A DNA stretch of 64,000 nt from Candidatus Shapirobacteria bacterium (GCA_041665485.1 JBAYIT010000001.1:277156-341155); one strand, 5' to 3'. Numbered from the stretch's first letter, positions 3,001 to 44,090 are shown. Translations and numbers: made by a program. The notes: generated from the letters alone by a model not told the origin.

Positions 3001-6000
3001 AGCTGGGGGTGGCGACGGTAGATCCGGTTACGGGCAAACAAAGGCCAATAAAAGATATTAATGATGAAATTGCTCTTAAAAAGGGTACTGGGAGTGTGGG
3101 GATTGGGGAAGATGAAACTAAGAAACAAAATGATAGGGCTAAAGAATTTGGAACAGTAAGACGAAGCGGTGAGGAGAACAAAGAGTTGGAAATCAGACTG
3201 GATGGAATAAAAAGGGAATATGACGCGTTAAAGAGTTTAGGAATTGAAAGGGTAGCAGATACTAGTGGGAAATTACCAGCCTATGGTGTGTTTATGTCCG
3301 GAGCGATTAAGGAACTTGATAAACAGATGGAAAGCTATGGTTTGAGATATAACAGTAGTGATGGGATAGAGAAAAATGTGGAAGATTTGAAGGTGGCAAA
3401 GGCAGAAAAAAGAGACGAGGTAATCAGGTTGGCGGAGACGGCGGGGGTGGAGGGAGTTGATTGGAGTACTTTGACGACGACGGAGATCAAGAGAATGACT
3501 GTTGATAAAATTGCTGGAAATGAAGCAGACATTGTAAGGCAAAAAGCAGAAGCAGAGGCGGAGGCAAGAATTGCAACGATAGTGGGGCAAATTAGAGCCA
3601 TAAAAACAGACTATGTCCGGCCAGACGAATTGGATGAAAATGGGGCGAATGCTGATTTGGCAAAAGTGAAAGAAGAGAGAAGTGAATTGGTGGATCAGAT
3701 AAATGGAATTGATGGTGGTCAGAAGAAGGCAGATTTGGAAAAAATGACGATTGGAGATTTGGAAGCGAGGCTGGCCGATCGACAGGAAAAACTGACAAGT
3801 CTTAAGGCAGAATACAAAAGGCTGGCGGGAGAGGAAACTGGTGTGGGGGAGATACAAAAGTTGACAGGGCAGATAGGGAGTTTAGTGGCGACGAGAACTG
3901 GTTTGGAGACAACAGCCAAAATTAAGGGTATAACAGCGACAGTGACTGACGCTTTGTCAAATCCAGCGATTCAAGAAATGATTAATGATGATAATAATGC
4001 TGAGGCGGAGTTTAGAAATACGAGAAGTGGAGAAGGTTTTATGTGGAGAGATAGGAACAATGGAGAGTTGGAGGGAGATTATGAGTTTGAATGGAATAAG
4101 GAAAAAGAGGCCAAAAGACGGGAATTAAGAGCAGAGATTGCTAGGGTGGCGGGTGGTGAAGTGGCCGGGTTGGAAAATTTGACAGTGAAAGAGTTGGAAG
4201 TAAGGTTGAAACAGGAAGAACTGGTGGCGACAAGTCGGGCAAATTTGGTTCAACTGCAGGCAACATGGAGCGGTCTTGTGCCAGAGGCGGCTAGGTATGG
4301 ACGGGAACACGGAATAAGTCCTGACCAGACGGAAAACTCGTACAGAACGGCGATAACTGGTTTAAGGAACTGGATAGCAGAAGCAGAGAGGACGAGGCAA
4401 ACAACTTTAGGGAAAATTAGAGATTTGGATGGGGTGGTGGCAGTGGCAAATACAAACACAACTAATTTGGGTGTTTTGGATGAGGTTTTGACAACGGTGA
4501 AGAAAAATAATACTGATTTGATTGCTTTAGATAATGAGATTAAAAAATATTTGGGAGCGGATTATAAAACGGATAGAAGTCAGGGTTTAGTTAAGGCTTT
4601 GGAAGTGGCAGAAGCAAAACTGGCTGAAGTAAAAAGACAATGGAATGATTTGTGGACTCAAATTGATGAGATTCGTGGTGTGAGGACCAGTGACAAGGTT
4701 CGATTGGGCCAGAAAAATTTAACAACTTTGGGGAGGGTAAAAGAGTTGGCGAATACAAGAGCGTTACGGGCGAGTGAGGCAGAACAACAGAGGCAGGTAG
4801 AGGAAGTGACGAGGAATGAAACAAGAAGAGTTGCCTTGGTGGTGGAAGTAAGGAATATTTGGGGAGATGTGAGTTTGGAGCCGGATGGGTTAGAAAAGAT
4901 GACCATTGTTCAAGTGGGATTAGAGAAGGCTAAAGCCAATCAGGCCTTGGTACAGGCCAGGCAGGAGGCGACAAAAAATGGGGCGACGCCGACGGAGTTG
5001 GCTGGGGCGAAAAATATAAAAGCAATGAGGGATTTGGTGGCGAAAAAGGTGGAGGAGGCTACAATATTGGCGGATGAACAACGAAGGCAAGCCGAGGAAG
5101 TAGCAAGACAGGCTAAAGCTGAAGCAGATAGAAAAGCGGAGGAGGCTAGAGTGGTGGAAGAACAAAGATTAGCCAAAATTGCGGCGGATAAGCAATTAGT
5201 GGACCGGGTAATGGCGGAGGTAAATGGAATAGTGGTGACAACTGGTTCGAACCAGGATGAGACAAAAGAAGCCTTACAAGCGGCAGTAAATCGGTTGGTT
5301 GGAATTGATACTATAACTGCAAAAGGGGCAAATGATTTAATTAATCAAAAGAAAGCTTTGATAAAGAAAGTTGAAGAATATTATGAAGGTCAAGATGTAA
5401 ATGATGCACTGGTGACGGGAGTGGCAAGGGTGTTGGGGGTTGCTCAAGTTAACAATTGGAATACAAAACTGGGAGCTTTGCAAAACTATGTTGATGAACA
5501 GATGTTTAGTAATCCAACTTTCTGGCCGGATGTTGGCGAAGAAGTGGTGGTGCAAAAAATTGGTGAAAAATTGAAAGAATTGCTTGGCACTAGTGATCAG
5601 GTAATGGCAACAGAGATTAAAAATAGATGGAATACTAAATTAGTCGCGGAGAGAAGTCGTCGTGAAGAAATCAGAAGGGAAAACGAATTGTTTGCTCATA
5701 AGCAACAATATTTCTCTGGAGAAAAGGCAATTCCAAATTTAACAGACAAGGAAAAAGAATCGATCATGGATGCGGTGGATAGGAATGCGGTGGATACAAT
5801 AGTGGCGAGATTAAGGGTAGAGAAAGAATTGAAAAAAGCAATTGGAGAGGTGGTATCGAGAACCGGAGTAAATGGGGATTTGAAGGGACATTTGACTGAA
5901 GCGGATGTAAGGAAAGCAGAAAATATTGAGGCACTTAACCAAATGGTGGCGAAGGCAGAGGTAGCAAAAGGTTTGGCGGTGGCGGAGAGAGTGGCAGGAG

Positions 6001-9000
6001 GGGAATGGGCAGGGGAAAGGGGGAAATGGTTGAATATAACTAAAGGAAGGAATGAACTGGATATTGATTATATTAAAAAGGTAGAAAAAGCTGAAAGGAG
6101 GGTGGTTGTGGAGCAAGCCAACAAGATTTTGGCCGGATTGAATTCAGAGATGGCTAGGGAATTGGAAAGATACGTTGTGGAAAGAAAATCTATTCTTGAA
6201 AAAATGACAGCTGAAGGAGTTACTGTGGCAATTGGTGAGCATTTAGCTCAATACGCGCAGAGATGGTATTACCGAGATACTCCTGGATCTATATATCAGA
6301 CGGTGATAAAAAATATGAGAGACACCCCGGGAGAATTAGGCAATGTGTATGCCCTTTCGGTTGAGAGGGTGGTTGGGTCTCAACAACAAGCAATGATTGA
6401 CAACCAGCTGGCAAGGCTGAAAACAACTGTCGGAAAAGGGGTTGCGGCTAAAAGAGTGGCTTTGGGAGATGTTCATAGTGATGTGGAACAGCTTGCTCGT
6501 ATTCTTAGAGGTGAAGTCAACGTGGGAGCAGATTTTAAACCAGTGTTAGATAAAAGTAATAATTGGATCGGAGGAAAGACAGTTATTAGACTGACGGGAG
6601 ATTTGATTGATAAGTTACCGCCGGGGATGACAGGGATACAAGTTTTGCAGACAATTAGAAATTGGCAGAAACAGGCGAGAGATGCCGGGGGTGACATAAT
6701 CATTACCTTGGGGAACCATGATATTCATACAATTGCTATGGCAAATGGTGTATTGGAAGAACCGATGATTACCAGTGGTGTTGATATACATTTAATTTTG
6801 GAATTAAGGAAACCAGAATATGGAGACCTTTTAAATTGGTTTACCCAATTACCCTTGATAACTAAAAGTGAGGAGAGCGGAAACATTTACATACATTCAG
6901 ATACGGTGGCCTATTTGGAATATGGTGACACAATTGAGGAGATAGATCAAAACATCAGATCGATATTGACTACCGGCCGGGGATTGCCGGGAAAAATAGC
7001 ACCAACAAGTTATTTGCGTACCGATCCTGCAACCAAGGAAAGAAGTTGGGTGAGGGGGGTTTCTCCAATTGAAGCTTTAATGCACAATTTGACGGGCCGA
7101 AGGGGTGAATTTAAGGATCCAAATAATGTGACGAGATTTTTAACGATATTAGATGGTAAGGGAATAATCCATGGCCATAATCCTGGGGTTAGTTATGATG
7201 ATCCGAGGGTGATAAATGTTGATGCTGGGATGTCTTTGGGTATGTATAAACCAGGGGATGACCCAGGATTACAGAGAGGGCGAGCGATAGTATCAACAAT
7301 TTTGCCGGGTGGTGAGTTGAAGATAGATATCGAGAGAAGATTTGCCCAAGTTAAGATTTCGGATAAAGACTTGCCTGATGTGGCTGATTTGTGGCTAATT
7401 AAACCTACTTTAAGGCCGGAGAAAAACATTATTTTAGGGAGAAACGAAGGAGTAGATTTACCAGTAAATGATAGTAGAGTTTCTAGCAAACACGCGAGAC
7501 TAAGTCGTGATCTGGCTGGTTTCTGGTGGATTGAAGATAACTCTTCGACTAACGGGGTAGCAGTTTGGGAGGGGAAGTATTGGCGTGAATTAAAAAACAT
7601 TGACCCAGTGGCAAGAAACACTGGTTTAAGAGACAGGTCGAGGTTGGTTGATGGGTCGATAATATCGCTAAACAGAGATACGAATTTGTCGTTGTGGTTT
7701 CGGGTAAAAGTAGATGGTAATGGAGAAATTAGTTTGGAGCCTTACTCGAGTCAGCCACAACAGCCAGGTTTAGGTGTTGAGGCACCGGCAAAAACTAGTC
7801 AACAGGATGGGGATGTAGCAAAGAGTAATCTTTTGCAAGTGATGGCCCAAAATGCAGGGATAGAAGTTGGTTCGGTTGTTGAAAAAATGAACAATATGGC
7901 AAATGAAGCTCGTAGTGGTGGCTTCAAAAATTTGCCATCAAACTTAAATAATCAGAGCAACATAATCGAGATTGTTAATATGAATGCGGCCTTGGTGGTT
8001 TACTTTAAAGCTGATTATAGATCAAGAGCGGGTGTGGATTTAACTAAGCCGGTAGTTGTCGGGGCAACGGCGAATTGTTTTGATTGGCAAAAGGCTTATG
8101 TGATGGCCATTTCGGAAATTGGCAAACCAGCAAGTCAGCCAAGTGTGGCGCCGTCGGCAGCGCCGTCGGTAGCGCCAGCGCCGATAATTGTGCCACCGGC
8201 AGGAGATACTGGAGTTGTGTTGGGGGTTGATAGTAAAGGGAGAGAGGTGAGAATAAAGACGGTAAATGGGAAAGAGGAGGTAGTTGTTGAAAATTTGATT
8301 ATTAAACATAATTCAATTGGTACTGTTTTAGGAAATGGGACAAAATATGAGAAGTCGGTGGCTGGAGAACCAGGTGATGTGGTGGCGGTGAACGGAAAAG
8401 GGGAAAATCAGATTAGAGTTAGTTTTAGTAAAGACGGCAAGGTGGTGCAAGTAAAGGTGGGTGGGATAGTGGTGGAGAAAAAAGAGGCCAATGAGGCAAT
8501 TACTGTGGCTGATTTGGTAGTGAGAGAAGTAACTTTGAATACGGCGGCTGATCAAAGTGGAGTTAAAAAGGCAGTGACTAGGGCAAAAGCAGAATTAGAT
8601 AAAATTGATCCAAAAATAGCTAGTGAAGTGGAAAGTAAGCTGGGACCAATTAGAACCAGAATAGTAGAAATAGAGAATCATGTGGCAAGAGTGGAAGGGT
8701 ATTATGCGGGTAAGTCGAACATTGTGGTGGCAGAACAGGTGGCGAGGGTTTTGGGGGTGGTGGGAATGGATAAGGGAGATGATGTTTATGCGGTGGTGGA
8801 CGGATTATGGGGAGGGATAGAAATGGTACGAATTGAGGATGTGTCAACTGACACAAGCATAATTGCAAATATAAGAGGAGAGATAATGTCGAGGAGGTTA
8901 GGGATTAGTGATTCTCAAATTGTTGAACTGGCTAAATTTATCGCCGGAAATTGGACGACTCAAGTGGCGGCGGAGAGGGTAAGAAGAGCAGATTTAACAA

Positions 9001-12000
9001 AGGCTAAAACAGAATACTGGAGGGCGGAATCGGCTAAGTCAAATTTAGCGGCGGCGGCATTATATGAACTGGGGGGAGGGAGTTATGCGGTCAATTTGAC
9101 AAGCCGTTATCAAACACTAGACCAATTTAAAATTGCCGTGGAGGAGCAATTGCGAATTGCCAATTATCTGGTGGATGGTTATAAAACAGCAAATCCAGAA
9201 ATAACTGATGAGGATATTGAGTCGGCCTTTACTGGTTTTGGCACCAGTGGTTCAACCGCTTTTGCTTTTAAAAGTGTGATGAATGGTGTTGACGAAAGAG
9301 CAAAGGCGAGGGTGGCAGAGGCAAGAGTTAAAGCTTTACCAATAGAAGGGTTTTTGACAGTAGAAGAGGTTACGGCTAAAAAGACAGTTAAAGAGATAGA
9401 TGATTTGGTGGAGGAAAAAGGGCGCGAAAGAGATAGTTATATCGCAAAACAAAAAGAGGAGTTAAGGCAGGTGGCGCCATTAACTCAGGATGAAGAAAAG
9501 GCGATTGATGGGGCGAGTGGGAAAACAGCCATTGATAGAGAATTAGTTAAAATAAAGCAAGCAATAGCGACGAGGGTTTTGATTGAAGATCAGAAAAAGA
9601 ATCCGTTAGTAAAAGTGGGGAATGGTTATAAAAATAATAGTGGTAGGAGCATTAAATATCACACTACTGATAATCAAAAGACTTGGACGTGGGTAGCGGG
9701 ACAGGTAATTCCCGAAGAAACTTTAAAAAATAAAATAGTGGAAGTGGATGATGACCGAGTAATCTGGGTAAATGGTCAGGGAGTGGTGACTACCTACACG
9801 ATTGCTCTGACAAATGCCGATTACAAGCCATTGCAGGCAAAATTTTTAGATAAAAAGGGGAATGTAATAAAAGACAAGGATGGCAAGGTGGACTTGGATT
9901 CGAGTAAAGTGGAAGGGGTAGAGTCATATGAGGTGAAAGGTTCAGATGGGACAATAACAGTATTTCATGTAGCGAATGCTAAGTTTCCACAAGGCGTAAA
10001 GTCAAAAAGAGAATTGGTGGCTAATATGGCTTGGGTGGTTAGCCGGACAAGAGAAGTTATCGGGAATCAGGCAAAAGATGTCTCTAATGAGGTGTTGTTA
10101 GTGCCTCAAGAAGCAACGAGTTTTGGAGGAATGGCGCCAGGAGTGAAGAGTGAAGATGTTAATTCGGTAATGGTGGTTGTTTATGATTTGGTTAAGACGC
10201 AATCAGTTCTGGCTCATGAATTGGGGCATGAACATTTTGGTAGTTCTCCAGTAACCGATATTAGTGAGGGGGTGGCAATTAATGTGTCGATGGAAGCAAT
10301 TGGAGGCGGTGTTGATCAGGAACGGATGGATGGAATTTTAGATCAGCCGTTTGATGTGAAGGGGGAGGGAGAGGGAATAATAACTTCGACTGGTTTGGCT
10401 ACTTTGGATAAAGCCACAGAGAAGGATAGATGGCTTTATACTTATAAAAGTGGAACGTTTTTGATTAGGTCCTTGATTGAGGTGGTAGGAGATAGAAGTA
10501 AAGCTTGGGAAATGGTGGGTCGATTAATGGAGGCTGGCCGAAAGAAGTTTTATTGGAGTGAAGGATTGGTGGTCACGAGAATTTCTGGGGGAGCAACAGT
10601 TGATTATGCCACGGCAATAGATGAATTGTTGGTTGACGTAGGATTTAATGCAGAGCAGAGAACAGCAGTTTACGAAAAACAGAGTACGTATTTATACTTG
10701 GGTAATAAAGCTCAAATTAAATACGAAGAGTCCGAGGTGACCAAAAAAATTGGAACAAAACCAGGAAATGGAGGTTATGTGATCAGAGGAATGTTTTTAG
10801 CCAAAGAACACGTTGAAATGGTTAGAACTAGGAGGGGAGGATTGTTGTTGATATCGAATAAGTCGAAGATGGGGACACGTGTTTTTAGGGAAGGGCAATG
10901 GCAGGAAGTTCGGGTGGGAGGCGATCCGACAGAGTTAAGGGAAGGGGATGTGGTAAAACTGGGATCAATTGGAAGTTCGGTGTATTTTAAGGTGGTAGAT
11001 CTTTATGGTCGATTGGACCTAAAAGAAATTGAGGCATATGGGGTGAAGGGGAAAGAAAAAAATAAAGAGGAAAGAGTTTTGGGGGAAGATCCAGTGGTTA
11101 CAGAATATAGGCGAAAGTTATGGGATAATTATAGATATGAGGACCCCCATGAATGGAGACTAGGTATCTTGAGGACGGCGATGAACACGAGAATTAGTGA
11201 TGTGACGAGAATGAGGGCACGGGCGGCCAAATATGGAGTGGAAAACGATATTAGTTGGGCTGGTAGAACGACGGAAGAAATGAGGGCGGATTTGGAAGCA
11301 AAAGTTGGGCCAATGGTGGTAGCATTAAACGCTCGGGCGAAGGCGGTGGGATTGGTGGATATTAAAGATGAAGAGACAGTTGAAGATTTTGTAAAAAATA
11401 TTAGTGAAATTGAACGTTATATCGGTCTGTATAAATTATTGAATAAGGGGTCTGCCGACGGATTGAATTTTGGAGTTGAGGGATTTCAACAATTATCCAC
11501 GAGGCTAAAAGCTAAGATATGGGAGTTGGCTCGACAAAGAGGGGTGGCTTCAAATAAATTTGTCACTTTTTCAATAGCGACAGCCAAAGAGATGTTAAAT
11601 AGAATTGATGTGCTTAATGCCAGGGCGGAAAAAGTAGGATTAGCTCCGAAATCTTCGGATGTTAGTGAGATTGGTTATTTTTATGATTTGGAGAGAACAG
11701 AGTCGTTAATAAAGTTGTTGAAGTTTATGGGGAAGACTGATATTGGTGTTGGTAAATTGATGGAATCTGGTGAATTATACGAGAGACTGATTGGTTTACT
11801 TGAGGAGAGGGCAAAAGAATTAGGTTTGACTGACCTTGGTGACGTTTCGGATGAGAACAAAGTTTCAATGGTCAGGGATAGATTAAATGCCGGTTGGGTG
11901 GAGAAGGCCCAGAAAGAGGGTTTGACAGTGACGGTGGCGACAGGCGATTGGCCGGTGGATATGGAAAGAAAATATGAAAGTGCTAAGGAGCAATTTTTAA

Positions 12001-15000: not shown

Positions 15001-18000
15001 TCCCTAGTGCGAATGGAATGACAACCGACGAGATTTTAAACAAAATTGAAGAAAGATGGCAGAAAAAGATAGATGAGGTTAACTTGAAAGCAAGAAGATT
15101 GGGGCTTGCTCCGATGGGTGAAGGTGATGATTATGACGGATATAATGCAAAAGTTGCAAACTTTGAAAGTAGATTAAATGTTTTGCGTGGTGTTGGGAAA
15201 GAAGCACCAAGGCTTGAATATGCAAGAGTTTTAAATAGCGCTAGATATAGTGATTTCTATTGGCAAGTCAATAGACCCGCTTTGGAGAATGTTGATATGG
15301 CGACGGCTCAAGTTAATAATGGAATCGAGAGAAAAACGATTTGGGACAGCTGGTTGAAAACTGTGGTAGGTAAAGGTTTACGTGTTGTTAATGGAAACGT
15401 GGTTTGGGGAGTGATTGATTTTGGAAAAGAGCCAACAGCAGATGTTGTTGGTGAATTGGAAAGGCGTGCCCAAGAAATCGTGACCAAATATAATGATTCT
15501 GTTGTTGTGCTGGAAAGGTGGAGTGAAAGGGTTGGTCAGAGATTAGATTATGTGGGTGATATGGAAAAATTCTTGGAAGATAAGCAGGAGACATTGAATT
15601 CATGCAGAGAGGCAAACGAGAGGTTGCTTAAGTTTGGTCAAGAATATGGATTAAGGGAAGATGAGTTGACAGCCATAAAATCGATAGCGAGACTTAACCA
15701 AACAACCCAAGATTATTCTAGAAAAGAAGCAGAATTACCTGGACGTTTTTCTGCTTTGAATGTTGGAATAGTTAGAGATCCTAAACAAAGATTAGACGAG
15801 TATGAGAATCAATTAGTCGAGTTGCAGCAAATGGTTGATAATGGTTTGGCACTGTCGGACCAGCTTGATGGAGAAACAAATAGTCAATATTTGTCTAGAA
15901 TGAAGGAAAAAGAGTCTCTGGAGTATGGCAAACTAAAAGAAATTGCGAAACAAAATGGTCTCAATGATGTAGATATAAAACAATTTGGTACATTGGGTAA
16001 ATTAAGAAAAGAGATAGTTAGATTATTAAAAGAAGAGATTAAACTTCTTGGCGGAGACGTTGAGGCTGATGGAATCGAAGATATTGAGCAATTGGTGGTA
16101 TTAAAGGGAACAGTTCAGGAACAAAAAAGAATGGAAAAAGAAAATTTGTTAATTGAAATTATGAAATACTATCCAGATTATAGTAATGGAGGTATATCCG
16201 CTATTAAAAGTGACTTGGCAAAGGCGGTAGCGAGAAGAAATGAGGTAGCCGGGCAGATTATGATAGTTAATCCAAATTTGGCAGATAAAGTAAATGCAAC
16301 TAATAATATTGCTGAGTTGGAAAAGATGTTGGAGGTGGCTAAAGGGGCAAGGGAAGTGGATCAAAAAACAGCCGTGGCGAATAAAAGTGTTGGTGGTCAG
16401 ATTGACCAATATTTTGAAAAAATTAAAGATGATTTAGAGAGAGGTCGATTTGTGGCCAGAACGTTAGGGTGGTCAAATTTTGGTAGATGGGATGATGTTT
16501 ATAATGCCATGGCGGAGGTTGAAGGATTAACTGACTTTAGCCAGGTGACGGACTTGGATCAGTTAGCTAAATTTATTAGAGATCAAGACCGGATCAAGGC
16601 GTTGCAGTTAGAAAAAACACAAGAGGATCAGGTGGTGGAGTATGTGAGAAGGAAATTGGAGGGGAGGGTGAAAGAAGGATTGGAGAGGAGGGCAAAATCG
16701 GCTGGGGTAGAGGGTGAGCTTGGGAAAGTTAAGGTGGCGTTGGCTGGGTTGGTGGGAGTAGACAAGGTTGGGGGTTATGAGGTGTCGGCTGACGGACTGA
16801 CGCAAGCAAAGGCGGATTTGGCCGAAGCTAGCCGGAGCGCGGGAAAGTTGGCTCAAAGAATAATAGAGCTTGACCCGGCCAAATCTTTGGAGGTGACAAG
16901 ATTAAACATTCCGGCTTTGGAAAAGATGCTTAGAGAGATGGAAAGCGAGGCGAGGATTAAGGAGTTGGTTAGGAGAGGAGGTACTGTGGTGGCGGGAAAC
17001 ACACCGGTTTTGGCGGCACTAGAGGCCAAACCTCAAGTCCAAGATATAGCTAAATTGGAGGCGGTAGAGAGATCAGTGACGGCTATGCTTGGGGAATTAG
17101 AGACGGAGGTGGCCGATCCGAGGGTGGCTAAGGTCTTGGGAGATTTAAGGTTGCAGCAACAGAGGGCGGCTAGCTTAAGGGTGATTTTGGAACAAGAGGT
17201 TCTGGTGGCCGAGGGGCAACAATTGGCAGTGGAGGTTGGCGAGGTGAAAGGAAAGGTGGAAGCTCGGCAGGATTTGGCGAGGCAAAAAGGAGTGATTTCT
17301 TCTTTGTTGACCAGAGCTAGAGCATTGCAGGGAAAGTTGGAAAAGATTGTGTCTAGGGAGAGAAAAGTGGCCAGCGCCAGAGAAACAGTTAAGGGTAATA
17401 TTTCTACCCTTGAAAGGTTGGAGACTGAGGCCAACATGGTTGCCTTGTCGGAGAAGCTAGGGAGGGGAAAAGTAGAATTAATAATTCGGGAAAATGGCCA
17501 AGAGTCTGGAAACAGACTCGATGTAAATGTAGCCTACTTGGATGCGATCGCTTCGGACTTAGATGTTTTGATTGGACAACAAAGGCTGGTGATCGCTGAA
17601 CTGGATGGAGTATTGGGTGAGTTAGATTCAGTAGCCACTCTAGGTGATTTGTCGCCAAAGACAATGGCAGTGGTTAAGAAATATATACCAAAGATGGTTG
17701 TTACAGATAAGGTGGCAGAGGTTGTTGGTGAGTTGAGGGACCGGCGTCAGGAGTATCGTGATGTGGTTGGTGAGTTACTGGGTCTTCAGGCGGCATTGAG
17801 AAATAGGACTAAATTTGATGGATTGTCGAATGGTGCTGGTAAAATTGTTAAACGGAGCTTGGCGCGGAGATTTCACCCTGATACTGTTGGTGAGATAGTG
17901 ACGGTTAAGTTGGGCGGGGAGACCTTGTTGGTTGATTTAGAGAGTAGAAGAAATATTCAACCACTGATATCAGAGTTGTTTATAAACCCCAAGATTATAG

Positions 18001-21000
18001 GAAAATTTGAGTTTGGGGGAGCTATTGAGACTCCGAGTGGTTCGGGGGCGAGAAATGGCGGAACAGCCTCTGCTGGCCAAAATATACGGAAGTCGGGACA
18101 GGATGTTGTTGTCAGTTTTTATGACACTAAAGTTAGAATTCGAAGGGACAGGGGCCGTTATTATTTATATAACGATGGCCCCTCTTGGATGAATGTCGAT
18201 GTTGCTGGTCGGAATGAGCTTGTAATTGTGTTTTCGAGTAAAGTTTATGAATTGAAGAATGGGGACTTTTTCTATGATCAGTACGGAGTCGGGTATAGGT
18301 TTGTTGACAATGGTGGCGTGGCGTATTTGTTGGATGCTCAAGGTAACATAGTGTGGGTGTTTGATCAGGATCAGAGTAGGAGGAGTGACGAGGTAAGGAT
18401 TGAAACTAATAACGTGGTTTTTGATTTGCCATCTTTGGGGATTCTTGCCAATATTTTTGTTACTAATACCGATGCTAGTGGAGTAGTGAAAATTTACATA
18501 GACGAGACAACTACAGGCACGATATATGTTAAAAAGGAACAAATAGGGGGATTTAGTGTTAAGCAAAACTATCCCCCGGGAAGTTATCAGTTGGGTGATG
18601 GTGATGAGGTGACAATTGCCGGGGTAGTGTATACGGTTATAAATCAGCCTCAGTTGGGGACAATAATCATGGGTTCAGATGGAAAGCAATATAAGATTAG
18701 GGATCCATGGGGTGGCAAGTCGATGAGAGATAAGGCAAGAGAAGACAGAGAGCCGATTTCTCTTAAGTTCGCCGGTATTTTGGACAAGATGAACAAAATA
18801 GACGCCATATTATTGTCAATGGGGGTGGCTGATTATGAGAGCAAGATGGTTCAGGTAGAAGCAATAGCTGATCGTTTAGAGATTGATATGGCTGACGTGG
18901 AAGCCCAAATTGGCGGATGGTTTCGAAATTATGGAAATTATTTGGGGCCCAATGATGGTATCAGGCAAAGCATGGAGACAATGAGCCGTGATCTGAAACA
19001 GAAGCGTTTAAATTTGGTGGAACGGAAAAAGATGCTAGCCAATATTCAAAAATTTGCAATTAAGTGGAAACTTGGGATAAATCATGGTCTCGCTTATGAG
19101 ACTATGATCGGAAATTTGGGGAAACTGGATACGAAGTTGGCAGAGGAATATCGTCGCGGTCTTACAGATATTAGAACAGATATGGTGGCAAATGGATTTA
19201 TACTGAGAAGTGGGATGCCGGGTAGTGGTGAAACTAAGGCGGAGATTTTGAAATCGGTTGAAAGTGATTTGGTGGCAATTGATAGTTACATTGGAGTGGT
19301 AATGAGAATTAATGAATTAAAGAGCGGAAGGGCTAAGATCGGGGAATGGGAAATCGAGGCTGGGGAGGTTAGGCGATTAGGGCAGATTTTAGTGGCGGAG
19401 AGGACGGCGACTAGACCACTATCATCCTCGATGGTTTTTGACATACGGGAGAAGATGCTAAATGCTTTGAACCAATTAGTTGCTGAAAACGTGGCAAAGG
19501 CAAGGGGTTTAACCACTAAAGATCGCGACCAAATACTTTCATGGGAGGCGAGCCTGAAAAAAAATGTGTCAAATGTGCAAATGATGGAGGTCATAATTCA
19601 AGCGGAGGAGATGCAGGGGAGAGTGGGAGAGAGTAAAGGTTCAATTTCTGGAGTTGTTGGGGGGAATTGGCGTAATAGGTTGACGAAGATAATTGCCGAA
19701 AATTGGCGAAGATTAACTGAAAACTATTCCAACCTTTGGATTGGAAAGATGGTAGCTGATACAACCCAGGTAATTGAGAATGAGAAAAAAGCTGTGTCGT
19801 TTGCTAGCGAGGAGGAGGCAAGAAGGTGGGTTGTCGAGAGAATAGAAAATAGAATGTCTGCCTATTTGGACTCGCCTCCCGGAGGTTTGAGTTGGTTGCA
19901 GGGGCAGATAGAAAGTGGCGAGACATCGGTGCTGGCTAAAAGATTGGCCGGGGTGGTGGTTGCCACTTTGCAGGGGGCGAGGGGTGATTTATCGAAACAG
20001 ATTTTAGGGGCGGTGTCGTATTCATCGAAACCGGTGGATTACTCGCAGTGGTCTCAAGCAGCGAAAACTAATATCTCAATTCAAGTTGAGGAGAACTCTT
20101 TGAGAGTAGCAAGATTTCATCCATATGTGCGTCAAGGTAGAAGTAAAGAGGATAGGGCGGCAACGTTAGTAGATAGCCGGGGTTATGCAATTGGCCAGGT
20201 GATAGCAGATGGGCATTCGCGGGATAAGAAGGCTGGTCAGTTAGTGGAACAAGTAGTGGCCAATGTTCAGTCTAATTTGAAAAGATATGATTGGACGACG
20301 ATGGACAGAAAAGGAGCGGAGAGGATACTGGTGGGAATCTACAGTCAGATATCTTTAAATTTTGCATTTGAAGAGAGGGGTGCGGTACTTCAGGTGGCGG
20401 TAGTGACGACAGATGGTTATGTGGTAATGAATGTAGGTGATCCGACATTACTAACAGTTGATGTCAGAGGCAGGATAGTAGAACACGGAGGTGGAGATTG
20501 GGCCACGGTAGCCGAGGCAATGCAGAAATATGATAAGGCCATTTGGGATCGATGGGTGCCAGATCCTTTTTCTATTGATACCCGAGGTGTGTGGCGGGAC
20601 GATAGGTTGTTGATGGTGGCCAACACGATCGGAGATGATGCTAGCGCGAGGCGGGGTATTCAGATAGTAAGGGAATATTTGGCCAAAAACCAGGGACGAA
20701 TGAATCCTGAATTAAGGAGGATTTTGGATGGGGCAGTGAATTATAGAATGGAATATTTTGGGAAAGACGAAGTGGCAGGGGTGATAATAGGCTCGGATGC
20801 GGTGGTAGATAACTCGAAGAAGACTGGTGGTTTTGAGACAGTGGTGAAGAAAAGTTTGAGCCAGAATAGTGAAGACGTTATTAGTCGGATGGTGGGAATG
20901 ATAAGTCCGGACGTGTTGGGTAAGAGTGTTGATGATTTGTCGGTGGGCTACCTGAAGTGGAGTGAATATTTCGGTGGTGTTGGAAGTGTTGAGGTAACTT

Positions 21001-24000
21001 TGGATACAGCAAAAACGGGACAGATAAAGATAGGTAATGTAGTAGTAGGTGGGGGTCAAGGTAGCCAGACGAGTGGATCCGCGGCGGCGAAAGTAGTTTA
21101 CGAGCCAATAATTATTGGTCGGAACGAAAATGATTTGGATGGGATGTTTAGGTTTAATCAAACAGTGTCGCGCAGACAGGCAAATTTGACATTAGAGGGT
21201 GGCGATTTATTTATTGATGATGCTGGGTCGATGAATGGGACTTGGGTGAATGGTGTCAGAATCACAGGAAGGACAAAGCTATATTCTAGTGATGAAGTGA
21301 AATTTGGCTTAGGTTCACAAGAGGTGGTTTTACGGTTTGGACTGGAGGGGACGACTTGGGTGGCAGTTCAAAAAACCACCGGAAAAAGATATGTGTTTAA
21401 TTTTCAAAAAGCTGGTTTCCAGCCCAATGGTTGTTCTGATTGTTCGGTGGTGCGACAGACGGTGGAGAAATTGGTGGCGAAGGCGAAAGGTTTTTATGAG
21501 GCGGGCAATTCGGCAGAATTTCAAAGATTGATTGATTTGGCTTATGGTTATAACAATAATCACACTTTTGTGAATGAAGTAATTCAACAATATGGCATGG
21601 CGAATATTAGTTACGTGGAGGCAATAATGAAGAGGACAGCGGAAACAGTTAAGTATGCTCAAAAGATGGCGGCGTTGTCTTTGGAAAAAGTGGACGTGGT
21701 TAGGGACGGAGAAGCGCTAACAGGGGGAGCATTAGCAGAATTGGATGGCATAGAAAGTGATGTTAAAGCTAAACAAGGAGAATTGGGAAAAATTGAAGTA
21801 GTCAAACAAAGTGAAGAGGAACAGGCGGCAGAGGTAAAGGCAATTGACGAGAGGCAGAGGGCACTTGACGAAAAGAAAAAAGCAGGAGATGCTAAAACAG
21901 AACAACAAAAGAGTGAAGAAATGAAAGTAGTCGAGGATGAAGTGGCGGTGGTGGAGGAAATGGAACCGAGTGTGAAAGTGGTTGAAGAAAGTGATTTGGG
22001 CATAAAATCATCGGAATCGGTTAAAACAACTAGAGCCAGGATTATTAAAGACGGAAAGGACTTGGGGTGGTACATCGTTAAAGAATTTAGGTCGAGCGAG
22101 GTGGTACAAGACAATTTGGATGATTATCAGCTTTTAAAAGAAAAAGGATTTCCGGTTCCAGCAGAGGTAATGGTAATTCCAGGAAGGCCGAATTCAATAG
22201 CAGTTACCGACTTAACTGAAAACGGAAAATATGAAATTTATTCATATAACAATATTACTGACGGGGCCATTAAACCAAATATTTCTAACTTTGACGAAGT
22301 AAAACGGCAATTTAGAGACATAGCTCAGAGGGCGGATGACAACGGATGGTTGATGACCAATGATTCATATTTTTTAGTTCTTGACCCAATCACATATGTT
22401 GGAAGGGTAGTAGTGGGAGATTTTGGTGGGGCAGTGATGACAAAAGAGGAGGCAGTAAAACAATACGGATATTTGAAAAGCGACACTAGTTTGAAAATGG
22501 TGGAGAACTTTATGTTGCCGACCTTGGCGAGTGTGTTTAATGGAGGGGAAGTGGGAGCAGTGGCGGCGGCGGAATATAAACCTCTTGGTTGTTCGGATTG
22601 TGCGGTGTGTGATGTGACAGTTGATCAGATAATTACTCAGGCTAACGACGAGGCGATTAAGGGCAACGATCAAAAGGCTTTGGAAATATTACGAGGGTTA
22701 ACGGCCTATGCCAATAGTCACGTCTACGACAATAAGGTGGCTCAACGGCTGCAAAACTTGAGGATTGCGGTGGCAGAAGCAATTATCGCCAGAACATCAG
22801 AGACTCAAAGTTATGCTTTAATGCAGGCCAACTTGGCAATTGACGAAATAGAGAGAGTGTTGAAAGAACCAGGGTTGACCACGGGACAGATAATAGGTCT
22901 GGTTCATGAACGGGAGGAAGAAGTGAAACCGGCGATAAAAAAGGTGCGGGCGATTAGAGTGAGTCAATCGAAATTGGGTGAGATGTTTGAGAGTAGATTG
23001 AGAAGGGCGGAAATAAGTGTGGCTGGAGTAGTGGGGACGGAGGTGGAGGCGGTTAGACAGAGGATGGAAGCGGGAACGGAAGAATTGAGTGTTGTTTTAG
23101 AAAAAAAGTTAATGTCAGTGGATAGAGTAATCGAGCCACAAATAGGAGAGCATTTATTGGAGGCTAAAAATCCAAAGATGTTTTTGGCAGTTAAACGGCT
23201 GTTGAATTTTTCCAATCAAAACGAAAGATTTTTGGATGACAACGAAGGGGTGGTGGTTGGTTTGCAAAAAATTATGGACGATTTAACAATAGTGGTGAAC
23301 AAGGAAAGAGTGGCGGGCAAGAAAAAAGCTATGCCGGCGGTTAAAGTTTTTGTTCAAGTGGGGGGAGAGCCAAACGCCTTTAGTTTGCCGGATGGGTCGA
23401 TAGTGGTGACTCAGTCATTAATTAATTTAATGAGAACAGAGGATGAAATTGCGGCGATTTTGGTGCATGAATTTTCTCATTTTGAGGACCACTTTATGGA
23501 CTGGCGGGAAGATATTTTTGATAAGGGGGGGTTGGGCGAAGAGGTGGGTCAACCATTAGTAAGTAGATTGCAGGAGCATAAGGCTGATTACGTGGGAGCG
23601 AGGTTAAAGAAAATTGGTTTTAATGGCATGGCGATGACGTCGGCATTGGAAAACTTGCAAATTTATGTGGCTGATTTCGAAAAAGCCCAAAATGAAACGA
23701 TTCAGAAGGACTGGAGAAGAAAAATATGGAAATTTTTTGGCATAAAGACAGTTGATGAGTGGAAAGCGGGAACTGATGTGGCTCATGGGTCGATTGCTAA
23801 TAGAACGGCCGGCCAGGAGGTAGGTAATAAATTTATTGAGCATGGGGGGGAGGCAGTGGCGCCAAGAGAAGTGCCAAGTGGCTGGAAGGGTAAAGCGGGG
23901 GTGGATGAGATTTATGGCCATTTAGTGGGTGATAATTATGGTCCGGAATGGGAAAAAGCATTGAGGTCGGCGCCAAGCGAGGTGGTGCGGCAATACATGG

Positions 24001-27000
24001 AGAGTTTTACTAAGGAATGGTTGGTGGAAATGGCGAATCAGAAGACTTATTATGATGGCCGATTTACAAGGCGGAAGGATAAAAAAGGAGTAGAGCGGCT
24101 GGTTCAAACAGTATATGATGATCGCCTTTTTGAACAATTTAGTCAGTATCAGTTACAAATGCTGAAGAAGTTTGAGAGTTTGGAGAAATTGATGGCAGAA
24201 AGGATGGAAGTAAGTGGAGAGGATGAAGGAAAGATGATTAGACTGATGACAGTCATCAAACCAGGTCCACAAGGAGGAGAGCTTTATTCGCAATTATTGC
24301 ATCAACTGAAGGGGGAAATGATGCCGGGTAAGGCGCAGGAGGAGGGAAAAAAGCTTTTGGCTAGAATTGGAGTGGAAAATGGCCAAATGTCGCAGGAATA
24401 TGTGGCGAGGATAATTGATCAAAAATTTTGGGGAGAGAGATTGGCTAGAGTGGGATTAAGTGGGGCAGTTAACTTCCGTCCGGGGCCAATTATCAATAAG
24501 ATTTTTGATGAAAATCTTTGGAATGAAGCCAATGATATAACGGCATTAACTAGAATTTTGGATTGGGTGTTGGTTTTACCTATGTCTGATTATTACCCGA
24601 GCGTATCGATGGAGAAAAAGGTTTTAGGAATGATGTTAACTTTGGCGTTAAAAGGACCAACGCAGGGAGAGTTAGTGTTTAATGAAGAGGTGGCCAAGAG
24701 GCTGGTGGAGGCGGGCTTACGGGTGTTGGAAGCCAATCCAAAATTAAAACAAAGTGAGTTGTATTACGATATTTTGGGTGACAATTATAATTTCAGAGGA
24801 GCACCTTTTTTGGTAAAGTTGGCTTATAAGAAGTATTTAGTGGCGGGATGGGGAATAGTTGACCTGTTTACAGCAGAAGAAGATTTTTATATTGCGGTTT
24901 TGAATCAAGATGAAGTGGCCTTGCAAAAAGTTTTAGTGGAACATCCGGATGCATCTTTGAATTACATAATGGCGGCGGCAGGCAACGGGGTTGGTGAGGA
25001 AAGACAGAAATGGTTGATGGCCGAAGTTAAAAAGTTTTTAGAAGGGCCGCAGTTTGATGGGGCGGATTGGAACGTGATGCATCCGGAAGAATCTAAGTTT
25101 ATGTTTAACTATCAGGCATCGATGGTTTTAGTTGAGGGCTATGAAGAAAGGCTTCGAGTGGCGGATTTAGTTCAGAATAAATATGTTGAGGTGATGATAA
25201 GGATGGATGATTCGAAATTGGGTAATTTGGTTTTTAAAATTTTTGAAATTCAGAGTATGTATGGGATTAATAAGGAGAAGTATCAGGAAAATGTCGAGAA
25301 AGTTTTTGGCTTACCGGTTTTTGATTTAGTGCAAAAAAGGATATTGGCCGAGAGTGGAAAGACAGGATATTGGGGTCAGCCAAAATACTTATATCGGAGA
25401 GCGGTAGCATTTTTGGAGGGTACCAGACAGATGTATGGGGGTGGGGTAGATTCTACCACTGTGGCAAACTATCCATTTTTTGGGGAGAATGCTTATGAAG
25501 CTAAGTTTTTGCAGCCATTTATTGAGCTGATGCTCAAGCAAGTAACAGACACTTACCCGGCTGATTTCCCCAAGACGACGACCACGGCTTTGAAGTATTA
25601 CCAAATAATTAAGGACTTACCGAAGAGTGATGAAAGAAAAGCGTTGCTTGACAGGGCGGTAGAGATGATGGTTCAACAAATGCCATTTGATGATTTGCTA
25701 AAGTTTGTTCAGGCAGAAATAGCCGATGGCAATGCTGAAATTGGAATTAAGTTTTTGGAGAATCGGGTGCAGACAAATTTAGAGTATCAAAAAGTTAAAG
25801 AAGCTTTTGGGAGTGATTTTACCAAAATGTTAACTGGCGGGGCGGTGGCGAAAGGGTCGGTGGGAGTGCTTTTGGATACGTTGATGAGTAATGTTCTTAC
25901 CGGCGAACAGACTTTTGAATTTTTTGAAGCGGCGCTAACCGGAGATGATGCCAAACTGAGATATTTTATGGGTAAGGCGTTTAGTGAATATCTTGGGTAC
26001 AACCAAGATGGAATAATGGTGCACGAGGATGGTTCAATTACGGGGACAGGGGTGGGAAATTTACCTATTTTTGAGGACTTGATGGCGGAGCTTTACAGTA
26101 TGTCGAAGATGCAAAAGACGGCTTTAATTTACAAAATTTTAGCTGATGATAGCTCTGGGATATTAAAACATGAAGAATTACATCCGAGAATTGCCTCTAT
26201 GATGCTTTCTAGGGTTGAAGGTGAGCCCGGGATGAAAACGTTTATGAATAAGGCCATTTTGGCGGTGTTGAAACAGAGAAGGGGGAGGACAAAAGTGGCT
26301 TTGGGGGTGTCGAGTAGTTTGGCAGACATCTTTTTAATGAAGCCGAAGCAAGTGGCAAGTAATGACTATGCAGTGAAGAGAATTATCGAAGGGAATTCTA
26401 ATTACAACGTTCTAAAAGATACTACCGGATGGTTGGAAGAGCAGAAAAAATATTTTTTGAGGGTATTGGGAACAAAAAAAGATGATGTAATGAAAGATCC
26501 GAGGAATAACGATCCGGTGGTGGTGGAATTGAGAAATGAGGTGGCAGAGATGTACAAAACAATGTATCAACGGATGGGGGTGGTTGAGAACAGTGGCCAA
26601 CAAACTTTGGGCTTTGAAGAGCAAAAAGTGCCAGCGACTAAATTTGTAGTTGAGATCGGCAAAGCCTTAGGAGCGTTGGGAGTAAGATTTTTGCAGGTAA
26701 TGGGCCAATACTATGAAATTACCCCGGAGATGCGAAACGACTTTCAAGCGGTGTATGACAGTGCGTCAAGTTTGTTTATGGCTAATGCTTTCCAGACGAC
26801 GGAAATGGGGATAGCGGCACTTAAAGCGGAAGCAGATAAATTAGAAGCTGATGGAACCAATCCTCAAAGAGTAGTGTGGTTGCGAGGGGAGGTGGCGGCA
26901 ATGGAAGAAAGGCAAAGGACAATGTTGGTAGTGAGAAAAATTGGCGGCGGGTCAATTAATACTGCCTATGAGGTAACTAAAATTGGGGGCGGGGAGCGCG

Positions 27001-31539: not shown

Positions 31540-31914
31540 ATGTATTTGATTGATACGGACTATTTAATTGGATATTTGAGAGGAAAGAAGGATGTGGTGG
31601 AGGAATTAGATTTATTTGATATAAACTTGTGGTCTACAAGTGTTATTTGTGTGGGTGAGGTGTTGGAAGGGGTGGTAGACAAGAACAAACAAAAAGTAGA
31701 AAAGTGGTTTGAAGAAATGAAGATTTTTGAGGTTGATTTAAGGGTGGCAAGAGTTTTTGCTGAAATTAGGAGAGAGTTGAGGAAGCAAGGAAATTTGATT
31801 GACAATATGGATTTGTTGATTGCTTCGACTTGCTTGGCTTACGATTTGATCCTAGTAACGAGCAATAAAAAACATTTTGAGAGGATTGGTGGATTGAAAA
31901 TTTGGGAGAAATAA
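31540..31914 (+). CDS. vapC: PIN-domain toxin VapC
   Basis: MYLIDTDYLIGYLRGKK...VLEGV...LLIASTCLAYDLILVTSNKKHFERI (PIN acidic residues D6, E, D, D). Confidence 0.8.
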   Translation: MYLIDTDYLIGYLRGKKDVVEELDLFDINLWSTSVICVGEVLEGVVDKNKQKVEKWFEEMKIFEVDLRVARVFAEIRRELRKQGNLIDNMDLLIASTCLAYDLILVTSNKKHFERIGGLKIWEK

Positions 31915-36633: not shown

Positions 36634-36927
36634 ATGAGATTTGATATTTCAACTGATTTTGAGTGGGATGCCGGTAATGAAGACAAAAATTGGCTAAAGC
36701 ATCAAGTTTCAAAGTCGGAATGCGAAGAGATTTTTTTTGACCCAGAAAAAATCGAATTAAGAGATTCAGAGCATTCTAAAATAGAAGACAGATTAATCGT
36801 TTTGGGAAAAACCAAAAAGGAAAAATTATTGTTTGTGGTTTATACCAGAAGAAAGGACAAAATTAGAGTTATTTCGGCAAGGACGGCCGATAAAAAGGAA
36901 GAAAAATTATATGAAAAAAATGCTTAA
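36634..36927 (+). CDS. brnT: BrnT-family ribonuclease toxin (DUF497)
   Basis: MRFDISTDFEWDAGNEDKNWLKHQVSKSECEEIFFDPEKIELRDSEHSKIEDRLIVLGKTKKEKLLFVVYTRRKDKIRVISARTADKKEEKLY. Confidence 0.7.
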   Translation: MRFDISTDFEWDAGNEDKNWLKHQVSKSECEEIFFDPEKIELRDSEHSKIEDRLIVLGKTKKEKLLFVVYTRRKDKIRVISARTADKKEEKLYEKNA

Positions 36928-37171
36928 ACTACCAAAATTTAAGAACGAGGACGAAGAAAGAGATTTTTGGGCCAAAATTAGTTTGGCGGACTATTTTGAG
37001 GCTAAAGATTTTCAAAAAGTAAGCTTTCCTAATTTAAAGCCAACGTCGGAGGCAATTTCTATCAGGATACCTCAATATATGTTAGTAAGGATAAAAGAGA
37101 GAGCAAACGAGATAAACGTGCCGTATCAGACACTGATTAAAACCTATATTCAAGCGGGATTAGTGGCGTAG
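36911..37171 (+). CDS. brnA: BrnA-family antitoxin (RHH/CopG-like)
   Basis: MKKMLKLPKFKNEDEERDFWAKISLADYFE...SIRIPQYMLVRIKERANEINVPYQTLIKTYIQAGL; overlaps brnT by 17 nt. Confidence 0.65.
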   Translation: MKKMLKLPKFKNEDEERDFWAKISLADYFEAKDFQKVSFPNLKPTSEAISIRIPQYMLVRIKERANEINVPYQTLIKTYIQAGLVA

Positions 37172-37493: not shown

Positions 37494-38621
37494 ATGAATG
37501 GGGATGGAAATCGAGAAAAGCCACTGCAAGCACTCGATGTGGTTACATACATAAGTAGAGGGGATAGATTAGGTCTAGAAGAATTGGAAAGGTGTGGAGG
37601 TAAGAATTGGAAAGTTGTGGCGGAAGTTGTGGCTCAAATCGGCGAGGATAAAAATATCGCTTGGTTTGGGAGCGGGGCGCATGAAGTGTTAGCCGGTGTG
37701 GCCGATGAGAGAATGAGAGGTGCGGTTGCTTATGATGTTGAGCATTACAGCTTGAGGAGTGTTTCTGATCTTGATCTAATAGTGGAAGATGATGTTGATT
37801 TGGTTGGCTTAATGGGAAAGATTGCTAGTATGGGTAACTGTTGCTTATTGACGCCAGAGGCTAATGGAGTTAGCCGAAACAGATTGGAATTGACGTTGGA
37901 TAACGGGTTAATAGTAGAAATTTCGCAGGTGGAAAATATCGAGGAACAAATGAAGAAAGTGATGTTGAGGCATCAAGGAGTAGGTTTAAGGCCGGTGTTG
38001 GAAAGTGGTAGAGTGGTGGGAGTAGAGGTTCTTGATGAAACTGATTATTTGGCAGACAATCCGGCTCCGTTTCGGGTGACTTCAATAAACCCGAATTGGG
38101 AGGGGAGTATAAAGTGGGGCGATTTGAAAATGGCCTTAAAGGCAGTGGCTTGGATGGCTCAAAAAGGCGGATCAGTGAAAAGTATTGATTGGAGAGTAAT
38201 TGGCGAGAAATTAATTGGTGAGGTAGAGGGTGGCCAAATTGGAGGAGAACAAATTGACTATATTAGGCAAAAAATGGCCAAGATGATGACGGATACATAT
38301 GCTTACAATCGGTTTGATTTTTGGCAGGCAATGGTGTTTAAAGTACCAGCGGTGGCGGTTTTTAGCCCAACGATGGCTAATGGGTTTATGGACCATCCGG
38401 AATGGCAGAATGGGATTTTACTGAAACTGCTGGCAGATGAGACGAGTGGAAGTAAAATTGAGGTTGAGCCACAAGTAATGTGGGAAGGGGTGATTGGGTT
38501 GATGGTAGCAGAAGCTACCAATGATGTTGACTTGGGGGTAGTGATAAGCGAATTGGCTGAAAATTGGCCAGATAAACATCGTGTTGATTGGGGTAAAATA
38601 AGTTCTGAAGATGGCAGATAA
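37494..38621 (+). CDS. Hypothetical protein
   Basis: 375 aa ORF; AAGGGGAGGAGG upstream; no recognisable family. Confidence 0.5.
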   Translation: MNGDGNREKPLQALDVVTYISRGDRLGLEELERCGGKNWKVVAEVVAQIGEDKNIAWFGSGAHEVLAGVADERMRGAVAYDVEHYSLRSVSDLDLIVEDDVDLVGLMGKIASMGNCCLLTPEANGVSRNRLELTLDNGLIVEISQVENIEEQMKKVMLRHQGVGLRPVLESGRVVGVEVLDETDYLADNPAPFRVTSINPNWEGSIKWGDLKMALKAVAWMAQKGGSVKSIDWRVIGEKLIGEVEGGQIGGEQIDYIRQKMAKMMTDTYAYNRFDFWQAMVFKVPAVAVFSPTMANGFMDHPEWQNGILLKLLADETSGSKIEVEPQVMWEGVIGLMVAEATNDVDLGVVISELAENWPDKHRVDWGKISSEDGR

Positions 38622-43049: not shown

Positions 43050-44090
43050 ATGAAACCAATATTGATCTGTGGCGGTGTTGGAACTAAAATGTGGCCGGAG
43101 TCGAGACCAGAGAAGCCGAAACATTTTTTGCCGTTGATTGATGATAAGTCGCTTTTTAGGTTGAATTATGAAACTTTGTTGAAAAAATTCAAGCCGGAAG
43201 AAATTTTTGTACAAACCACCGAATTTCAAAAGGGGTTAGTGAAGACTGAGGCACCAGAGATCCCCGAAAAGAATATTTTTTTGGAGCCGGAAGTAAGAAA
43301 TACTGGTCCGGCAATTGGACTGACGGCGGCCTTGTTGTCAAGAATGGGTTATGGGGATGAGCCGTTTGTATTGATTCAAGTTGATGATTTAAGAGAACCC
43401 GATGATAGATTTTTGGAAATGATAGAAGTGACGGGAAAGATGGCATTGGAGAGCGATAAATATATAACTGGTGGTTTTAAGCCAGAGAGAGTGGTGCGGG
43501 GGGTTGATTATTTGGTAAAAGGGAGACTCCTTTCTAAGGAGAATGGAATTGTGGTTTATGAAGTAGCAGATTATATAGACAGAACTGAAACGGAAAAGAT
43601 TGAGAAGTATCTTGGTTCAGAGGATTTGCTGTTGCATACAAATCACACAACGATGACCCCAAATAATTATCTGAAAATGTACCGTGAATTAAGAAGTGAT
43701 TGGTATGAACCTTTGGCGGCAATTGTTGCTGGTGGTGATGTTAATGAAAACTTTATGAAGATGACGAAGGGGCCTCAAGAAGAGGTAACACCGACGATGC
43801 ATCGAAGTGGACGGTCTATTGTGGTGGAGATACCATTTAAATGGGTGGATTTTGGAACATGGGAATCGGTAGCAATTTATCAAGAGACAAGAGATAAGAA
43901 GCCAGAGTTAAGAGCTAAGATTGAAATAGAAGCAAGTAATAATTTTGTCAGGATGAGTGATCCGAATAAGCCGGTGGCGTTGATTGGAGTCAGTGATTTA
44001 GTGGTGGTGGATACGCCAAATGGATTATTGATTTGTAAAAAAGATCAGTCGGGAAGAGTGGGTGAAGTAGTGAAAGCATTAGAAGCATGA
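43050..44090 (+). CDS. Sugar-1-phosphate nucleotidyltransferase, mannose-1-phosphate guanylyltransferase-like (paralog 1)
   Basis: MKPILICGGVGTKMWPESRPEKPKHFLPL (ICGGxGTxxWP signature), NTGPAIGL. Confidence 0.7.
   Translation: MKPILICGGVGTKMWPESRPEKPKHFLPLIDDKSLFRLNYETLLKKFKPEEIFVQTTEFQKGLVKTEAPEIPEKNIFLEPEVRNTGPAIGLTAALLSRMGYGDEPFVLIQVDDLREPDDRFLEMIEVTGKMALESDKYITGGFKPERVVRGVDYLVKGRLLSKENGIVVYEVADYIDRTETEKIEKYLGSEDLLLHTNHTTMTPNNYLKMYRELRSDWYEPLAAIVAGGDVNENFMKMTKGPQEEVTPTMHRSGRSIVVEIPFKWVDFGTWESVAIYQETRDKKPELRAKIEIEASNNFVRMSDPNKPVALIGVSDLVVVDTPNGLLICKKDQSGRVGEVVKALEA

Follow-up and report, generated by a model that had tools for sequence, protein, structure and literature searches.

A putative, highly diverged PPM/PP2C-fold domain next to a canonical FHA domain in a giant protein of a Candidatus Shapirobacteria bacterium

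The DNA analysed here is a stretch of 64,000 nucleotides (nt) from a Candidatus Shapirobacteria bacterium (GCA_041665485.1 JBAYIT010000001.1:277156-341155), which we refer to as the window. It carries part of a giant gene, and the protein encoded by this gene contains a cassette made up of a putative PPM/PP2C-like phosphatase domain, a linker, and an FHA domain. The host is a metagenome-assembled genome of the Microgenomates group of candidate phyla radiation (CPR) bacteria. A single open reading frame (ORF) holds the whole cassette (window 54-29645, + strand, frame 3; 9,863 amino acids (aa) in the window), and its frame is still open at the first window base, i.e., it is cut by the left edge. 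On a 411,674-bp contig (ENA ERZ27249449 k141_1025756), the complete gene (~34 kb) is called with a product of 11,461 aa, and ~1,598 residues of the giant protein are located upstream of the window. Residue numbers used here start at window nt 54, and the corresponding full-protein numbers are higher by ~1,598. Minus-strand ORFs across the cassette (e.g., 20712-21161) are shadows of the giant frame. The genes ruvA and ruvB follow directly downstream of the giant gene.

The short strings by which an earlier note on this DNA had recognised the cassette are all present in frame 3 of the + strand, in the order and at the places it gave (Table 1). The distance of about 100 aa that it had reported between the phosphatase-like domain and the second FHA domain of the protein is likewise found, with the PPM-like domain ending near aa 6915 and FHA domain 2 starting at aa 7019. 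A Pfam scan of most of the linker (aa 6925-7020, E<=1) gave no family.

Table 1. Positions of the cassette, its motif strings, and other features of the giant protein
Feature	Residues (aa)	Window position (nt)	Strand	Basis
Giant ORF, C-terminal 9,863 codons		1..29645	+	ORF listing; neighbouring genes
First phosphatase, calcineurin-like/PPP metallophosphatase, ApaH-like	2135-2375	6456..7178	+	PF00149, NCBIfam
FHA domain 1, with insertion	~2456-2552	7419..7709	+	PF00498, NCBIfam
Third, degenerate FHA-like domain	3575-3637	10776..10964	+	PF00498
PPM/PP2C-like domain	~6686-6915	20109..20798	+	putative motif residues
Profile-matched part of PPM-like domain, motifs 1-5	6693-6808	20130..20477	+	PF13672, own HMM
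ADGHS	6718	20205	+	
NVGDPTLLTVDVRG	6793	20430	+	
C-terminal half of PPM-like domain	6809-6915	20478..20798	+	motif-8-like and motif-11-like strings only
DRLLMVANTIGDDAS	6850	20601	+	
Linker of ~100 aa, partly Gly/Ser-rich	6916-7018	20799..21107	+	
FHA domain 2 (Pfam envelope; last strands to ~aa 7098)	7019-7085	21108..21347	+	PF00498
IIIGRNEN	7019	21108	+	
VSRRQANL	7038		+	
DDAGSMNGTWVNG	7055		+	
SSDEVKFG	7078		+	
CxxC motifs	7126; 7512; 9338	21429-21449; 22587-22610; 28065-28085	+	sequence pattern

FHA domain 2 is an unambiguous FHA domain. The Pfam profile PF00498 matches it over its full length (profile 1-67/67) with 52.4 bits (E 7.2e-14; cut-off 20.7), and solved FHA domains (GarA, OdhI, Rv1747, and Rad53) match it at E 2e-6 to 1e-3, which bears out its earlier description as "very clean". 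The residues that contact phosphothreonine (pThr) are kept (G7022-R7023, S7039-R7040, and N7061-G7062-T7063), and the usual FHA His is Gln7042 here (S-R-R-Q versus S-R-R-H in GarA), so that five of the six conserved residues are retained. Judged from these residues, the domain is likely to bind pThr. A tblastn scan of genome contigs with the cassette segment returned 33 loci, mostly from Actinobacteria, all of which matched the FHA domain only, via MNGTWVNG.

The PPM fold is an alpha-beta-beta-alpha sandwich in which two five-stranded sheets are flanked by helix pairs, and the domain upstream of the linker very likely adopts it. When a 300-aa piece was excised, PF13672 (PP2C_2) matched aa 6693-6808 with 26.0 bits (E 7.6e-6), covering profile positions 7-127 of 209 only, while none of ten decoys of the same piece (nine shuffles and the sequence in reverse) was matched by a PP2C profile, and no family did better on them than E 0.033. 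We also built a PP2C hidden Markov model (HMM) of 252 positions from 19 sequences (18 taxonomically diverse plasmid-borne PP2Cs and one PstP). This HMM matches aa 6697-6801 at 10.3-10.9 bits (HMM positions 24-128/252), a score attained by two of 20,000 shuffles, and no other part of the giant protein comes near it, the unrelated runner-up window scoring 3.5 bits. The PADLOC model PDC-M21C, which is a PP2C-type model because known PP2Cs match it at 1e-7 to 1e-16, matches the same stretch at E 1.2e-3.

The alignment to our own HMM places K-E-D6700 on motif 1 (N-E-D), A-D6719-G-H-S on motif 2 (D-G-M-G-G), and GAVLQVAVVTTDGYVVMNVGDP on GtTlvalll.ggklvvahvGDSR, with GAVLQVAVVTTDGYVVMNVG-D6796-P falling on the G-T-T ... 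G-D-S-R hairpin of motifs 4-5. The earlier assignment of a PP2C-like phosphatase thus has support, weak though better than chance, in the N-terminal half, where ADGHS and NVGDPTLLTVDVRG lie and where motifs 1, 2, and 5 are found. An AlphaFold single-sequence model of the 248-aa domain (predicted local distance difference test score (pLDDT) 44.7, predicted template modelling score (pTM) 0.40) has the element order b-b-b-a-a-b-b-b-b-a-a-b-a-a-b, which is the PP2C order; a Foldseek search of the PDB with this model returned nothing significant, and a single-sequence model of 460 aa (pLDDT 33) was of no use. MAFFT alignments of the domain to PstPs were unstable, with the N-terminal or the middle part misaligned. 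An alternative register through FEER / TTDGY / NTIGDD / GSDAV / SVDDLSV, which came from a pairwise MAFFT alignment, was rejected because Pfam, our own HMM, hhalign, and the predicted secondary structure favour the register of the earlier note.

No relatives of the PPM-like domain were found in the collections that we searched. Neither aa 6683-7009 (E<=1e-3) nor aa 6675-6935 (E<=10) had a match among 5.8 billion protein clusters, and an exhaustive phmmer search of 1.84 billion representative proteins found no homologue of the domain; its three matches, all of them repeat proteins (with Big_6 Ig repeats or from a repeat family without a name), were judged spurious. A scan of metagenome contigs for the domain found none, and tblastn against plasmids returned noise only. 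NCBIfam had nothing for the PPM-like piece, and PF00481 and PF07228 were not reported for the domain in the Pfam scan.

The putative metal site can be compared with PPM1A, in which the relevant residues are D38 (motif 1), D60-G61 (motif 2), D239 (motif 8), and D282 (motif 11), and with bacterial enzymes, in which the motif-5 Asp (G-D-S) is a ligand of a third metal. Eleven motifs define the bacterial PP2Cs; motifs 1, 2, 8, and 11 each hold a conserved Asp, to which the bacterial enzymes add one in motif 5 (PMC12088040). Both our own HMM and hhalign identify the motif 1 Asp (D6700 in K-E-D), the motif 2 Asp-Gly (D6719-G6720 in A-D-G-H-S), and the motif 5 Asp (D6796 in N-V-G-D-P, aligned to h-v-G-D-S-R). 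The motif 8 Asp column is occupied by Asn6857 (A-N-T for S-D-G) according to both the greedy and the global path of hhalign, two MAFFT runs, and the end of the predicted strand. This register sets L-L-M-V-A-N6857-T on l-l-L-c-S-D-G; the full string is L-L-M-V-A-N6857-T-I-G-D-D, so that D6861 and D6862 follow 4-5 residues after the Asn. D6905 would take the motif 11 position, with D-E for D-N (G-K-D6905-E-V-A-G-V-I-I on g-P-D-N-V-T-V-v-v in hhalign and MAFFT, at negligible alignment confidence). Strands predicted at aa 6855-6857 and 6910-6912 in the 248-aa model fit the positions of the PP2C motif-8 and motif-11 strands. The earlier note had made its phosphatase call depend on the metal-coordinating aspartates, and the outcome is divided: out of five conserved Asp, three or four can be located, and one that is key is absent or shifted.

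The same phosphatase-linker-FHA layout occurs twice in the protein, with a spacer of ~80 aa in the cassette of the ApaH-like phosphatase. This first phosphatase scores 23.1 bits with PF00149 (Metallophos; cut-off 21.5), is matched by NCBIfam ApaH models (E 2.6e-8 and 1.2e-4), and has the motifs GDVHS, GDLIDK, and GNHD. FHA domain 1 is matched by PF00498 in two stretches (47.2 bits) and by the NCBIfam model FhaB (E 2.6e-10), and it shares 39% identity over 49 aa with FHA domain 2 (pairwise BLAST). The proposal that the protein contains two phosphatase-FHA pairs built from different folds is therefore sound as to the earlier pair (Metallophos at aa 2135-2375 with FHA domain 1), yet its count is incomplete, as there is a third, degenerate FHA-like domain. 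The latter scores 22.7 bits with PF00498 (cut-off 20.7, E 1.3e-4), lacks the Gly-Arg and Ser-x-x-His motifs, and is positioned after an HExxH region.

No stand-alone Ser/Thr kinase (Pkinase) gene was found in the window. There is a possible protein-kinase-like region near the C-terminus of the giant protein (aa ~8957-9175, window 26922-27578), whose Gly-loop and Lys align weakly to CK2 alpha (E 0.09) and whose HSDIHIGN loop has sub-threshold matches to the ABC1, APH, Fructosamin_kin, and UbiB models. These signals are weak but convergent, and the region could be the kinase counterpart of the phosphatase-FHA cassettes. A possible second kinase-like domain directly after FHA domain 2 (aa 7328-7490, window 22011-22553; IVKEF ... 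VVVGDFGGA) is not claimed, as Pfam and the PDB gave no support for it.

The 9,863 aa encoded in the window yield no Pfam domains other than FHA, Metallophos, PP2C_2, and Peptidase_M48, and they contain no transmembrane-like hydrophobic stretch, only nine Cys (0.1%), and 0.7% His. Seven of these nine cysteines are held by three copies of the motif G-C-[ST]-D-C-[SA]-V (CxxC). Each copy starts a similar helical module of ~90 aa, the first of which comes directly after FHA domain 2; a family match for these modules was not found, and a metal-binding or redox role is possible. HExxH occurs three times, at aa 3388, 7805, and 8706 (window 10215-10229, 23307-23486, and 26169-26183). The first has a weak Peptidase_M60 hint only and precedes the degenerate third FHA, and the second lies within the Peptidase_M48 match (aa 7752-7811, 41 bits). 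The string R-R-F-H-P-D at aa 5938 (window 17865-17882) resembles the HPD signature of J-domains, and a Pfam scan of the surrounding aa 5900-6010 returned nothing.

Downstream of ruvB, Pfam identifies genes of toxin-antitoxin type, namely a PIN-domain protein beside a small ORF (~window 31540-31914) and a BrnT toxin/CopG antitoxin pair (~window 36634-37171). Further along are a 413-aa protein (window 38611-39852) in which only a C-terminal Trans_reg_C domain (OmpR/PhoB-type winged helix) and no receiver domain is recognisable, and two adjacent paralogous genes for sugar-phosphate nucleotidyltransferases of 346 and 341 aa with ManC-type beta-helix ends (window 43050-45112). The strands of the window are extremely asymmetric: the + strand has 29.8% G and 12.6% C, and each 2-kb bin shows a GC skew of ~+0.4. 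Within the giant ORF, codon positions 1 and 3 have a skew of +0.58, and even across minus-strand genes the skew is still positive (+0.22 to +0.42). The same G/C disparity is present in related Microgenomates (Ch65, Collierbacteria, and Beckwithbacteria) (PMC7143001).

We tentatively favour reading the cassette (20109-21347) as a PPM/PP2C-fold domain of high divergence, probably a weak phosphatase or a pseudophosphatase, that a linker of ~100 residues joins to a canonical FHA domain. FHA domain 2 would dock the cassette on a pThr site, which may lie on a kinase, on a substrate, or elsewhere on the giant protein. Docking would position the neighbouring PPM-like domain, which would then either dephosphorylate nearby phosphoserine or pThr weakly or atypically or merely bind phospho-sites. 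Weak, atypical, or lost phosphatase activity is to be expected because Asn6857 replaces a metal-binding Asp. The same Asp-to-Asn change at motif 8 of PPM1A, D239N, is used as a catalytically defective mutant (PMC4942338), and catalytic competence is doubtful because Asn6857 would be equivalent to it. As far as the sequence can tell, a pseudophosphatase or an atypical site is at least as likely as an active phosphatase, and we lean towards a phospho-site binder or pseudophosphatase; that the domain is a competent phosphatase is quite possible, though we would sooner doubt it than assume it.

Several points weigh against this reading, and every line of the PPM evidence is individually weak. In sequence context PF13672 drops below its cut-off of 24: a 550-aa piece scores 22.1 bits, and a 4,963-aa half of the protein, scanned without bias, scores 19.3 bits (E 8.8e-4). 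Alignment of the single sequence to our own alignment with hhalign gave P 0.01 and a probability of 4%, a narrow HMM of 120 close PstP/Stp1 sequences does not match, and phmmer with the PPM-like domain against the PDB gave none at E<=10. The C-terminal half (aa 6804-6940) scores -1.1 bits against a C-half HMM, and 4,555 of 20,000 shuffles do as well; because it is thus indistinguishable from shuffles, DRLLMVANTIGDDAS, the third string that the earlier note had quoted for a phosphatase, is not evidence by itself, and it is only motifs 1, 2, and 5 of the N-terminal half that carry the PP2C assignment. The Asn-for-Asp call is of low confidence for the same reason, i.e., because the C-terminal half is without statistical support, and one MAFFT run aligned D6861 with the motif-8 Asp by means of a 4-residue insertion. 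No orthologue was found that would show whether the putative site is conserved, and no cognate Ser/Thr kinase is established.

Some of the same observations bear on two other explanations. It is unlikely that the domain is a fully competent PP2C, in which D6861/D6862 or Asn6857 would complete a binuclear metal site with D6905 and the FHA domain would target pThr substrates. In favour of such an enzyme, motifs 1, 2, and 5 have their Asp and D6905 is plausible as that of motif 11, MAFFT with one PstP set puts D6861 on the S-D-G Asp and D6905 on the D-N Asp, and the apparently intact PPP phosphatase of the partner cassette suggests that the protein carries working phosphatases. However, the canonical S/T-D-G is missing at motif 8, where hhalign, the other MAFFT runs, and the strand end give Asn6857, and D239N at this motif inactivates PPM1A (PMC4942338). 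The shuffle-like score of the C-terminal half speaks against full competence as well, as do the deviations at motif 5 (G-D-P-T versus G-D-S-R) and motif 11 (D-E versus D-N/D-D). We consider it improbable that the PP2C likeness is fortuitous and that only the FHA domain is what it seems, the rest being some other alpha/beta domain or a PPM fold with different chemistry (e.g., a SidD-like deAMPylase). Such an explanation would agree with the failure of phmmer to retrieve any PP2C protein from the 1.84 billion representatives, the 5.8 billion clusters, or the PDB, with the sub-threshold Pfam scores in context, and with the low hhalign probability, but the decoys give nothing, and the order of secondary-structure elements fits PP2C along the whole domain.

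A wider proposal, which we regard as improbable, is that the giant protein serves an episymbiotic CPR bacterium as a self-contained, or secreted, machine for Ser/Thr phospho-signalling, used to rewire phosphorylation in the bacterium or in its host cell. Such a machine would comprise PPP and PPM phosphatases each with an FHA domain, the kinase-like domain, the metalloprotease motifs, and the three CxxC helical modules, and its orphan PPM-like domain would represent a version of the fold that is specific to this lineage and has had its catalysis re-engineered.

Read as a diverged PPM domain coupled to an FHA domain, the cassette can be set beside several known systems. Plant KAPP is an FHA-guided PP2C phosphatase, and the PPM-fold pseudophosphatases TAB1 and the C-terminal domain of RssB are also among the closest known systems. 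Fusion architectures of FHA and PP2C have been catalogued in bacteria (PMC12088040), and in DRA0334 of Deinococcus radiodurans a KI-FHA domain confers kinase specificity on a PP2C (bioRxiv 10.64898/2026.01.23.701218). As in KAPP and DRA0334, a pThr-binding FHA domain and a PP2C-type domain would share one polypeptide, which by analogy suggests phospho-dependent docking. Unlike in these proteins, where the FHA domain is N-terminal to the PP2C, the order is reversed here, with the PP2C-like domain preceding the FHA domain by ~100 aa; its catalytic site is open to doubt, the giant protein has at least two such cassettes, and no partner kinase was identified.

The PPM-like domain resembles the bacterial PP2C_2 phosphatases (e.g., PstP, Stp1, tPphA, and MspP) in its size of ~230 aa, in the predicted order of its secondary-structure elements, in motifs 1 (E-D) and 2 (D-G), and in a hairpin with motif 5 (G-D) at its end, and such enzymes are the best structural matches of an unbiased predicted model of the domain. 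It differs from bacterial PP2Cs in having no detectable pairwise similarity to any of them, with the PstP-family HMM remaining silent, in its motif 2 (D-G-H-S versus D-G-M-G-G), motif 8 (A-N-T versus S-D-G), and motif 11 (D-E), in its unrecognisable C-terminal half, and in the length of the host protein (11,461 aa versus 250-600 aa). Ser/Thr phosphatase domains are among the domains common to giant bacterial proteins (bioRxiv 10.1101/2023.11.21.568195). Like the giants of Omnitrophota and those of Actinobacteria that have Ser/Thr phosphatase domains, the protein is a very long single ORF that tiles enzymatic and regulatory domains, but its host is a Microgenomates-group CPR bacterium, and very few of its domains are recognisable by Pfam. 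In a published complete genome, the largest of the membrane-anchored or secreted proteins discussed has 2,228 aa (PMC7143001).

Neither the fusion of FHA with PP2C nor a phosphatase domain within a giant protein is new. What is new is that the PPM-like domain is extremely diverged and an orphan, the Asn that it naturally has at the motif-8 position, the use of unrelated phosphatase folds in two cassettes, and the occurrence of an 11,461-aa host protein in a Microgenomates-group CPR genome. Taken as plain annotation, the result amounts to calling domains in a hypothetical protein. Should the cassette function in the proposed way, an FHA-guided phosphatase design would have been built twice, from unrelated folds, in one polypeptide. 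The organism devotes ~34 kb of a very small genome to this single gene. The natural Asn at motif 8 is a test case for whether a PPM active site may drift with its function kept or whether the domain may have become a phospho-binding pseudoenzyme.

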